From the IMG/VR virus record IMGVR_UViG_2563366903_000020: 37,235 nucleotides of DNA. One strand, written 5' to 3'. Position numbers: made by a program. The DNA is from a virus (taxonomy: Duplodnaviria > Heunggongvirae > Uroviricota > Caudoviricetes). This document shows, one piece after another, positions 25,201 through 28,200 of the stretch. Numbering within the stretch: position 1 is the first letter of the stretch; every line of letters starts with the position of its first letter.

Positions 25201-28200
25201 GATGCGCTTTAACCCCTATGCCCTGCTTCTGGATAACGCCAGCTGACGCGCTTCGCTTGTCTGCTGCTTCGCCGGGGCATAAAAAATTTATGCCCCGACT
25301 CTCCAGCTCCTGACGTCCGTTTCCCTCCCGATCTCCGACCTCGCCAGACGCATTCTGACGGCCTGTTTCCCTGACCATGTTTTGATGTGGTTTTTTAAAA
25401 CAGGCTTTACTGCTGGCGTATCACGCGCAATACGACCCCAAATAAAGCAACCTGCCTTCCACCCCTCAATTCGGGCGCCCTTCCCTCGTCGCCTGCGCAC
25501 TGCAATTGCCTCGTTTTTCGTGCACCGTGCAAACCGGCCTCAGCCAGCGCCGTTACTGGGCTGAATGGGGATGAAACACATAAGAAAAATTGTGCAATTT
25601 CGTGCGCTTTTGTGCATTTTTTATCTTGCGATTTTTGGGGGTGGGTGGTGATGATAATCATCTGTCTGAATCAGTGGGAGACTGCCGGGTGAGAACTGTG
25701 AAAAATTACTCATATCCTTATTTAACTTTTGTCACGCTTTCTGTTTTGGGGGGGATTTTTCTTTTTATTTGGTGGCGAAACGATGTTTACAGAATTACCT
25801 ACCTTTATTCGTTCACGACAAACTGCCTTGTTTCAGTGTCTGTGGTGCTTTCGGTTTTTGTCTCACTGTGCCTGTTGAAAAAGAACCTGGTTGATCGGTC
25901 TAAATTTACCGGGGTTACATCGTATCTTAAGTTTTTTTCGGGTATGTGCCTTCTTACCTGGATGATTCTGTTTACCCTCCTCGTTACGCTGATATATTTT
26001 CTTCCGGGTGAAGATTCATTCTATTCCGCTCCCTATGAGTACAGTCGCGGTAGCTCAAAAAGTTGTTCAGGGGCATTTGTTGATGATCCTGATTTGCAAA
26101 AAACAATCTTTATTTGCTACCCATACGGTGACTATCAGGATGGTAATGTGATTTATGTGAAGAAGCGTGTGAATGCGCTGGGTGCGGTGGTCACCTATGC
26201 ATACGCGACAAGCGGCCGATTTCGGTTTGACTGAAAAAAGAAATCCTGTGTTACCCTCGCTGCTGAGGGTAACATGCGTGAAGTCATCGCCCGGTTCTTG
26301 AGCTGATAATGCTTTGCGCCAGCAACTGCCAGCCCTCTTTCTGTTGCCCGTACTTGTCCTGATACCTGTTTACCTGCAAGTTTCCGTGCACCAGAATCAG
26401 ATCGCCTTTTCTGTGTTTTGCCAGTTCTTCGTGCTGCTTCCCGAATGAAATAAGGTAAAGCCACATTGTGGTTGGCTGTTCTGCGCCATGGCAGGGTAGT
26501 GATACCGCCAGTTGTGCCGTTGTGACGTTGGTTCCTTTGGTTGTTCTCCTTGTGTTCGGGTCTGCTGCCAGTCGTCCCTCTGTTGCAACCTGTGTTGGCA
26601 TATTTGTCTCCCGTGTTGGTTTTATTGTTGGGGTTAGATGACTGGCAGCTCTTCGCCAGCGCCGTAGATAAACAGAATTCTCTTCATGATTTCGCTGCGC
26701 TTGCAGGCTTCAATTACGGACGGCTCTTGTTGCCATTCTGCCCGTTGCGCCAGCTCCAGTCGTTCCTTTTCCGTTGGCTTCCGGTAATGCGTTATCTTGT
26801 CCGTGTACCCGTCCACAACCAGCAGCCCTTCGCGTACCATCTTTCCGGCGGCCTGATTAATGATGGTCCTTTTCACGCCCAGTTTTTCAACCAGCTCTGG
26901 TGCGCTGAAGCGTGCGTGCGTTTCCAGGTAGCGTAAAATGATTACCTTTCCGGTCATTCTGGGTGTCTTCATTTGGCGGCTCCTTCGTTGTTCCGGCGTT
27001 CGCGGAGTTCGGTCAGTGCTGTCAGTAAATTTTCCCACCATGTTTCTTCCACAACCGGATTTCGTCGTGAAAGCAGCTGCTGCGCCGACTCAATCATTTT
27101 CGTAAGCTCTTTGTCGCTGATCCTCCTGATGTCGTTCATTGTGTGCTCCTTCGGTTTGCTGTTTCTGGTCATGTTCATGGTCTTTTGTTACCTGCGTGAT
27201 TGCCTGCTGGCGGCCGAATGCACATAGCGGACAATTGCCGCTTTTCGGTTAACGACGGCCAGCGTTCTTGCCAGTTCTTCGTTGAGTTTTCTTGTCTGTT
27301 TTTCGTGGTATGCCTGCATGATTTTTCCTACGGGAGTCAGTGGTTCAGGCTCTGATATGGCGCGACGAGGGCGCACGGCAACGATGAATGCGCTTCTGTC
27401 GGTGTTGATTCTTGCAGTCAGGATGTCGGTCATGACGGTATCTGTGCTGCGATCGGGGTTTGCGATCGTGATCTCCAGTTCGTCGCCTGGCTGTGGTCGA
27501 ACACTGACGCCGCTCAGCGTCAGTGCGGGAATGCGTCCACTCATGATGGCGCTGAAATCATGGTGCTGGAGTACACAATGGAATCGTGTCATGGGTTCAC
27601 CTCCGGTTGATCTGCTGCCACCAGGCTTCGTGATTTCTCATCCCAGTGCACAATCCGCCCGTCAGGCAGGCGAACGCGTGCACCTCTGTGTACGGAAAGT
27701 GCTGCGCCACTGTGTAGCTCCTCGCCCGTCGCGCTCAGTGCCGACTTGATTACGGTGGTGGTGACGTCAGTCAGCGGCAATGCTGTACGCACATGTATGA
27801 CGTCATCGGGCGTGGTGGGGCCGCCGGTTTTCACGGTTTTTGTGTCAGATGGCGCATCTTTCAGCTGCCTGGTGAGTTGTTTTCGCTTTGTGGGGGTCAG
27901 TGACCTTAACCACTCACCCAAATCACCTCCCGGGACGACCAGTTTTTGTTCTTTCCTGGTTTCCGGTGGTGGGTTTTTACCCTCTCCGGTGTCTGTTTTT
28001 TCATCATGGGGACAGTTATTGCCACGAGTCCAAGGTGCGGCGAAGCCGCCCCCAACGTCAAAATCCTCGTCCGTGCTGTTGTCGGCTTTCGCTTCTTTTC
28101 TGACCAGTTCCCACTCGTCCGGATGGGTGCAGATGGTGTAGCGCTCGCCGAGCGACGGGGCACAAATTCCGTAGATGCGCTGCGGGAATTCGCCGTAGTC

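Follow-up and report, generated by a model that had tools for sequence, protein, structure and literature searches.

The slot between the cos-like site and gpA

We analysed a stretch of 37,235 nucleotides (the window) from the virus record IMGVR_UViG_2563366903_000020. It holds a complete P2-like prophage of E. coli, whose portal end is Xuanwuvirus/P88-like. The prophage is inserted beside serS (1-1293) and has its integrase gene at 36228-37235. The subject of this study is a plus-strand gene at 25698-26234, between the portal gene and cos-like site on one side and the replication gene gpA on the other. It encodes a predicted inner-membrane protein of 178 amino acids (aa) with three transmembrane (TM) helices. 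The features of the locus are listed below, the cassette first and its surroundings after it.

25621..26285, plus strand: cargo cassette of 665 bp, delimited by BLASTN against a near-isogenic prophage
25626..25658, plus strand: putative sigma-70 promoter, TTGCGA, 18 nt, GATGAT (or GATAAT at 25653-58); predicted transcription start about 25662-25667
25698..26234, plus strand: cargo coding sequence, 178 aa, GTG start; predicted three-TM inner-membrane protein with a periplasmic C-terminal domain
25748..25754, plus strand: G7 homopolymer within the codons of TM1 (LGGIF)
26249..26274, no strand assigned: hairpin with a perfect 10-bp stem (26249-58 / 26265-74) and a 6-nt loop, inside the cassette and between the convergent units
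25475..25493, no strand assigned: cos-like sequence GCGCCCTTCCCTCGTCGCC, left landmark of the hotspot; in an alignment, 13 of 19 positions are identical to the complement of P2 cosR
25519-24, 25526-31, 25591-96, 25601-06 and 25611-16, plus strand: five backbone (T/C)GTGC(A/G) boxes, the last three phased at 10 bp and following an A-run
22359-24197, plus strand: terminase large subunit
24203-25246, plus strand: portal protein gpQ (PF04860)
26284-26601, minus strand: SSB
26634-27041, minus strand: MarR-like or 'Ren-like' protein
between the MarR-like gene and gpA, minus strand: two small open reading frames (ORFs; 134 aa and 69 aa)
27589-30102, minus strand: GPA replication endonuclease (PF05840)

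The boundaries of the cassette came from comparison with a near-isogenic prophage of E. coli JNEC-KY179 (L006). Homology to L006 stops at 25620 and restarts at 26286, with flanks 99.6% identical through the portal end and 96.7% identical from 26286 onward. In place of the 665 bp, L006 has 799 bp with a DUF4760 gene. From these break points the cassette consists of the promoter-like region, the ORF and the hairpin. A sister prophage, L005, holds a pair of helix-turn-helix (HTH) and DUF6516 genes in the cargo slot, and P88 holds other small ORFs and ParM. Prophages with 96-99.6% identical backbones thus carry either the DUF4760 gene or the HTH and DUF6516 pair where the gene lies here. The first-pass annotation of this DNA had regarded the gene as cargo, and it is indeed not a backbone gene of all relatives. 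The cassette is an exchangeable one-gene cargo unit. L005 and L006 also contain an extra 646 bp (4148-4792) between the portal gene and cos, which corresponds to an insertion at about 25309 of the window. It encodes a 167-aa minus-strand hypothetical protein (WP_000017881.1) that is absent from the window, and represents a second variable slot on the far side of cos.

The position between gpQ with cos and gpA is that of the P2 hotspot (Rousset et al. 2022). In P2, old and tin are likewise transcribed from a promoter beside cosR towards gene A. The earlier description of the slot as cos-proximal and equivalent to old/tin therefore holds for both place and direction relative to cosR and gene A. 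The cos-like sequence shares the downstream layout of P2 cosR, a T-run and a GTGCA/ATGCA box about 25 nt away, and 25475-25493 is probably the cohesive-end site of the prophage. The boxes are found upstream of the gene in P2-like loci and are also kept in sister prophages with other cargo, which places them in the backbone. In P2 (NC_001895, about 33440-33550), AATGCA boxes lie at equivalent positions and the last overlaps the -35 element of the old promoter. They could be terminase (cosB-like) sites or sites for a regulator. In phage 434 (L001, about 4880-4920) the boxes are degenerate. Since degenerate boxes accompany the homologous gene in this lambdoid phage, sequence comparison suggests that the gene was transferred from a P2-like phage into lambdoids.

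The position of the putative promoter aligns with an extended -10 of the TGnTAAATT type upstream of homologues in Salmonella, Enterobacter, E. coli and phage 434. The putative -10 element reads GATATT in sister alleles and other strains, versus GATAAT here. At its other end the gene faces the minus-strand operon gpA-134 aa-69 aa-MarR-like-SSB, and the convergence with the genes after gpA that had been described is borne out. The hairpin between the two units is perfect and separates them as stated before, but its stem has 10 bp and not 9. It has a free energy of -20 kcal/mol (z about -4 to -5 relative to shuffled sequences). A U-rich tail follows it on the minus-strand transcript only, and the plus strand lacks a U-tract. 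The hairpin therefore looks mainly like a terminator of the SSB/gpA operon, and for the cargo gene it would be at best a weak one. An Rfam scan of 25000-27000 gave nothing relevant. The MarR-like winged-helix protein of the operon matches phrog_142, 'Ren-like exclusion protein', with E = 1e-28. Because its gene is conserved in sister prophages, it belongs to the backbone and not to the cargo.

Start codon, constraint and predicted structure

The longest ORF in the frame of the cargo gene runs from a TTG at 25590 to 26234 on the plus strand (214 aa) and ends with TGA at 26232-26234. Two GTG codons, at 25689 and 25698, are in frame, with plausible Shine-Dalgarno sequences at 25676-80 (GGGAG) and 25687-93 (GGGTGAG). 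The N-termini of homologues across the family read MK(K/N)xSYPYL, and PGAP also places the start at 25698 (WP_000801013.1, 178 aa). For both reasons GTG 25698 is the better start. The ORF proposed in the first-pass annotation is thus real but its start at 25689 is not preferred; GTG 25689 is a possible alternative that adds three residues (181 aa).

The GC content of the ORF is 0.421 versus a mean of 0.541 for the window (standard deviation 0.040, 537-nt segments), and only 0.4% of segments are equally low. The AT-richness noticed at first sight is therefore genuine, and a base composition unlike that of the flanking phage DNA is one of the marks of a moron. The GC minimum of the whole window lies at 25578. 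Other stretches below 0.45 are found at 1129-1735, just after serS at the prophage end, and at 33796-34781 and 35503-36147, in the DUF4761/cox/repressor region near the integrase.

An in-frame internal ATG at 25962 (M89) would give a product of exactly 90 aa, the size stated earlier for a downstream start. No Shine-Dalgarno sequence precedes this ATG. The profile of PHROG 1416 (function unknown) has 90 positions, begins at the internal Met and describes this short form. Many phage annotations apparently shorten the gene in the same way, losing TM1 and TM2. In others (434, mEp332 and some metagenome calls) it is made too long, at 188-223 aa.

Among E. coli prophages the ORF shows 0-2 substitutions, both synonymous, and the 198 nt upstream of it show 14-16. 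Judged from these synonymous-only changes, the ORF is under strong constraint within E. coli. Divergence among the E. coli copies is uneven, about 8% in the backbone and the 5' part of the cassette (25500-25697) and 0-0.4% in the ORF (25698-26234). This suggests either that recombination events end at the start codon or that the regulatory region evolves fast. In E. coli STEC17-183 the G7 tract has become G9, a +2 frameshift, and no coding sequence is annotated there. The tract could be prone to slippage, with slippage-mediated inactivation of the gene, or the difference could be a homopolymer sequencing error.

Hydropathy analysis of the product gave three hydrophobic segments (about aa 6-26, 40-61 and 80-103), and a C-terminal domain of some 75 aa follows the last of them. 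An AlphaFold model, built with an alignment of 28 family sequences, has a pLDDT of 93.3 and a pTM of 0.83. It contains helices at 6-29, 38-61 and 73-101 and five strands across 105-171. Hydropathy and model agree on the three TM helices predicted before. They also agree on the presence of a C-terminal domain, whose size is about 70-75 aa (roughly 80 aa in the first-pass annotation). The predicted parts of the protein, all encoded on the plus strand, are as follows.

25713..26000: membrane part, from hydropathy, charge distribution and AlphaFold
25713-25784 (aa 6-29): TM1
aa 30-37: periplasmic loop between TM1 and TM2, with a short strand at 34-36
25809-25880 (aa 38-61): TM2
between TM2 and TM3: basic cytoplasmic loop KKNLVDRSK
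25914-26000 (aa 73-101): TM3
26001..26210 (aa 102-171): predicted periplasmic beta-barrel domain, with C123 (26064-66) and C140 (26115-17)

The loop between TM2 and TM3 is basic. By the positive-inside rule the N-terminus is therefore predicted to be cytoplasmic and the C-terminal domain periplasmic, with only 5 and about 11 residues exposed to the cytoplasm. The barrel domain contains the motifs LPG, xCSGAxVxDPxL, IxICxP and KRSNxLGxVV. Conservation peaks in this domain and in the periplasmic loop, and the cytoplasmic loop is the least conserved part. C140 is invariant and C123 is present in 27 of the 28 family sequences. The two cysteines flank a beta-hairpin, and from their conservation and position a C123-C140 disulfide is likely. 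A Foldseek search with the barrel gave weak, non-significant similarity to OB-fold, cold-shock and CusF-like proteins (E about 0.03, with a first model of low confidence as query).

Scans of the protein against Pfam, NCBIfam and PADLOC (PADLOC-DB v2) gave no match. For the 28 family members, Pfam and PADLOC returned no meaningful match; there was one marginal RexB hit (E = 0.09) in a single member. The earlier statement that the protein could not be assigned to any family thus holds for the curated Pfam, NCBIfam and PADLOC families. It does not make the protein an orphan, because it belongs to PHROG 1416 and to a catalogued system described below. A solved relative was found neither by sequence, where a hidden Markov model (HMM) search of PDB sequences returned only TM noise, nor by fold.

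Several candidate identities were rejected. The motif SCSGAFV resembles the SxSGAxY region of the MliC/PliC lysozyme inhibitors (COG3895, PF09864), in which SxSGAxY and YxxxTKG are conserved (PMC6033465). In the present family only C-x-G of this motif is conserved, the first Ser varies and YxxxTKG is lacking; hhalign against E. coli MliC gave a probability of 0.33%, and none of the 28 members matched PF09864. Class I holins are N-out/C-in proteins with a short charged C-terminus in the cytoplasm and are encoded next to an endolysin gene, whereas this protein is predicted to be N-in/C-out with a C-terminal domain of about 75 aa, and there are no adjacent lysis genes in the window. A repetitive protein of 3074 aa (P0083) was judged to be no relative, its short and weak profile match being summed over nine repeat stretches around C-x-G-V-V-C.

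Family distribution and candidate functions

Rousset et al. (2022, Cell Host Microbe, PMC9122126) catalogued 18,150 P2-hotspot loci. The protein is an exact string match to their 'System #4' (three TM helices, no Pfam, 470 occurrences; Table S5B), and WP_000801013 is listed in their Table S5A. The 181-aa form in the catalogue (MRTVKNYSYPYL...RFRFD) is identical and the locus definition (gpQ-gpA) is the same, so that the two are one entity without any difference. The protein is therefore not new as a sequence. What is new is that a common family stands without functional or structural assignment; literature searches on the accession, mEp332, phage 434 exclusion and DUF4760 returned no functional study of the protein or of the 434 homologue.

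An exhaustive HMM search of 1.8 billion proteins found 58 representatives at 50% identity. Most of them, where full-length, share the architecture from the MKKxSY N-terminus on. Named members come from Enterobacterales and Pseudomonas, and every one is annotated as hypothetical. In P2-like prophages of Salmonella, Klebsiella, Enterobacter and E. coli, relatives occupy the same slot. In E. coli this P2-slot form is found in 22 of 5426 complete genomes. The lambdoid phages 434, mEp332 and 2B8 also have a relative; its gene is flanked by xis and exo and is read from the opposite strand to pL. This 434-type paralogue occurs in 915 of the 5426 genomes (about 17%). Of 71 further loci that were retrieved, most of them IMG/VR prophage contigs, about 65 contain it. 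A search of species-representative genomes with a closer alignment yielded two loci only. A further lambdoid prophage, in Providencia, has a relative between Q and the holin gene.

Other members lie outside prophages, and those next to restriction-modification, STAND NTPase or phosphotransferase system (PTS) permease genes are in variable regions of the chromosome. Pseudomonas poae has a member next to hsdRMS, and in P. salmasensis the gene occupies the same island border; those of Phytobacter and Kluyvera are beside DUF4062-TPR STAND-like NTPases. In Serratia and one other genome the gene is directly downstream of ptsG, and the Serratia copy is near mntR/mntH. In Klebsiella/Raoultella it is divergent from a bgl-type PTS EIIBCA gene, between the PTS operon and an ABC transporter. 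On Pantoea megaplasmids (for example LPP-1) it is near fetAB, a TonB receptor and a TetR gene.

Three observations concern the loci themselves. Just upstream of the homologue in phage 434, CPT_434B_35 (L001 4758-4928) is a 57-aa 'putative membrane protein' ORF whose 3' end consists of the degenerate GTGCA boxes. It co-occurs with the homologue in about 60 IMG/VR lambdoid loci, and its status as a gene is uncertain. In Klebsiella P2-like prophages (L010/L011 4281-7623) the hotspot contains, besides the homologue, a 790-aa AAA_16 protein and a 279-aa protein on the opposite strand; this pair is probably a separate defence system. The Serratia marcescens 'plasmid' pE28_003 (NZ_CP042515.1, L094) is a linear record of 67 kb with the core genes fabF, pabC, mltG, tmk, holB, ptsG, hinT and lpoB, and looks like a chromosomal fragment mislabelled as a plasmid.

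We favour the interpretation that the protein belongs to a new family of superinfection-exclusion proteins that block phage entry at the cell envelope, and give it a probability of about 40%. The moron and hotspot slots in two unrelated groups of temperate phages, the defence-type neighbours and the single-gene organization point to an envelope factor expressed by the prophage. The minimal cytoplasmic parts and the conservation on the periplasmic face further suggest that it acts at the envelope. For the same two reasons we favour an envelope-level mechanism over a cytoplasmic abortive-infection sensor.

According to this model, a weak promoter of its own would drive the gene in the direction leading away from cos, presumably in the lysogen. 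The 178-aa product would insert into the inner membrane by three TM helices with its N-terminus in the cytoplasm. It would expose a barrel of about 70 aa, stapled by the C123-C140 disulfide, and the short TM1-TM2 loop on the periplasmic face. The periplasmic domain might then bind the DNA-delivery machinery of an incoming phage, such as tape-measure or ejection proteins. Alternatively, its target might be a channel of the inner membrane exploited by the phage. At the inner membrane, lambda and HK97 enter by way of PTS permeases (ManYZ and PtsG, respectively), and these two permeases are speculative candidates for such a channel. Genome entry would be blocked and the cell would not be killed. 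The adjacency to PTS genes, that is, the loci downstream of ptsG and the locus divergent from the bgl-type EIIBCA gene, is a testable lead and not evidence. A bolder version of this model appears doubtful to us. It proposes a structurally distinct exclusion class, in which the disulfide-stapled barrel plugs or masks the inner-membrane conduit for genome entry of siphoviruses and myoviruses, perhaps PTS permeases in view of the repeated adjacency to ptsG and bgl EIIBC genes. About one sixth of complete E. coli genomes would then carry this class. So would phage 434, in which it would explain an unmapped exclusion phenotype.

Several points weigh against a role in exclusion. The family has no homology to any known exclusion protein, and apart from the marginal RexB match PADLOC gave no hit for the 28 members. 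Homology to P22 SieA was rejected, with an hhalign probability of 0.27% for the 28-sequence profile and no FxRYPxEAxxFNK motif in the alignment, and so was homology to HK97 gp15 (0.44%). A consensus promoter scan found no site above threshold upstream of the ORF; the putative promoter falls below it and would be weak. System #4 is not among the tested systems of Rousset et al. (Tables S2A/B; PMC9122126), and the sequence is not found in the supplements of Vassallo 2022. The P2 hotspot has yielded several validated defence systems, but it also holds non-defence cargo such as partition systems and cytolethal distending toxin (PMC9122126), so that guilt by association is weak. Several members lie in ordinary-looking chromosomal or megaplasmid contexts (Pantoea LPP-1 near fetAB; Klebsiella between sugar and amino-acid transport operons), which fits a housekeeping role in the envelope. 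The PTS adjacency is post hoc and concerns few loci. Finally, a periplasmic domain this conserved is not what is usually seen in an arms race with phage proteins that evolve fast.

The most probable alternative is a membrane protein for lysogenic conversion or host fitness without phage defence. It might confer immunity to a bacteriocin, a colicin or a periplasmic toxin of a type VI secretion system, modulate a transporter (PTS, metal export) or protect against envelope stress. The members outside prophages agree with it, as do the non-defence cargo of the hotspot and the conservation of the periplasmic domain, which is expected for a conserved cellular or toxin partner. These members are found in Pantoea (TonB receptor, TetR, fetAB), Serratia (ptsG, mntR/mntH) and Klebsiella/Raoultella (PTS operon/ABC transporter). 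However, phage moron slots and defence-island neighbourhoods dominate the contexts, and neighbour functions vary between loci. There is no adjacent cognate toxin gene in any locus examined. The weak fold matches to the periplasmic metallochaperone CusF would also fit this explanation, but the CusF/OB similarity is not significant. Overall, we regard this explanation as unlikely, though it deserves to be taken seriously.

An abortive-infection effector is improbable. Such a protein would depolarise or permeabilise the inner membrane on infection, like RexB or other lone TM effectors, and kill the cell before phages are released. The small size, the several TM helices and the location in a defence hotspot fit this idea, and TM proteins of known systems are usually suicide effectors (Rousset et al., PMC9122126). 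However, the gene stands alone without a sensor partner in any context, and the 5 and 11 cytoplasmic residues leave nothing to sense an intracellular cue. Conservation lies on the periplasmic face. The stable carriage in about 17% of complete E. coli genomes makes constitutive toxicity unlikely, and the RexB hit, in 1 of 28 members, is noise.

A function in the phage backbone, as a lysis regulator, a holin-like protein or a P2-type packaging or replication factor near cos, is largely refuted by the pattern of presence and absence and is very improbable. Neither P2 nor P88 has the gene, near-isogenic prophages with an otherwise retained genome have other cargo in its place, and in this form it occurs in only 22 of 5426 complete E. 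coli genomes. Three TM helices are also a feature of class I holins, and the Providencia homologue is directly upstream of a holin-endolysin cassette; but the Providencia prophage has its own holin, and the predicted N-in/C-out topology with a 70-aa periplasmic domain is unlike that of holins. The gene adjoins cos and its cos-associated repeat boxes, but the boxes belong to the backbone and persist with other cargo. A chance ORF in an AT-rich spacer, or a 90-aa C-terminal product only, might be suspected from the GTG start, the short PHROG 1416 model and the omission of the gene from some annotations, but the full-length architecture shared by most full-length representatives, the conserved Cys and invariant Gly residues, the synonymous-only substitutions, the AlphaFold packing of three helices and barrel (pLDDT 93) and the lack of a Shine-Dalgarno sequence before ATG 25962 refute this for practical purposes.

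If the gene is an exclusion determinant, it would be among the commonest prophage-borne barriers in E. coli, given the 434-type form in 915 of 5426 complete genomes. Among the cargo of the P2 hotspot, the P2-type ranks fourth in frequency. Such a role would bear on the host range of phages in therapy and on the interpretation of lysogen phenotypes. If it is not anti-phage, abundant hotspot cargo can serve other envelope functions, and this would call for caution in guilt-by-association discovery of defence systems. A test would be cheap, since it needs one 665-bp cassette, and a high-confidence model, two cysteines and the classical phage 434 with its homologue are at hand.

Comparison with known systems

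The gene resembles P2 old and tin in slot, orientation and the position of the repeat boxes relative to the promoter, here a putative one. The products differ. Old has ATPase and nuclease activity, Tin is soluble and both act on intracellular steps of infection, whereas the present product is a small membrane protein without an enzymatic domain.

The closest named relative is CPT_434B_36 of phage 434, with counterparts in mEp332 and 2B8. It is a true homologue with 51.5% identity over 93% of the length and the same architecture, and its upstream region shares the promoter-like block and the degenerate GTGCA boxes. Unlike the gene in the window, it is a lambdoid gene in the xis-exo region on the strand opposite to pL, and it is far commoner (915 versus 22 of 5426 genomes).

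HK97 gp15 is likewise moron-encoded and an inner-membrane protein; its gene has a terminator of its own. From the work of Cumby et al. (2012, 2015), gp15 is said to block PtsG-dependent genome entry. It differs in having 62 aa without a periplasmic domain, and the two proteins are not homologous.

SieA of P22 (about 164 aa) resides in the inner membrane, has three predicted TM helices, is expressed from the prophage and blocks DNA injection (Leavitt et al. 2024, mBio, PMC10883804). The likeness to the present protein is one of architecture only, namely a single gene in a moron-like position that encodes a three-TM inner-membrane protein of about 160-200 aa. The SieA motif FxRYPxEAxxFNK is C-terminal and predicted to be cytoplasmic, whereas here the C-terminus is a predicted 70-aa periplasmic barrel stapled by cysteines. 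The genomic slot and the phage family are also different, and no sequence relationship is detectable. P22 SieA is the best precedent for the proposed function of this protein.

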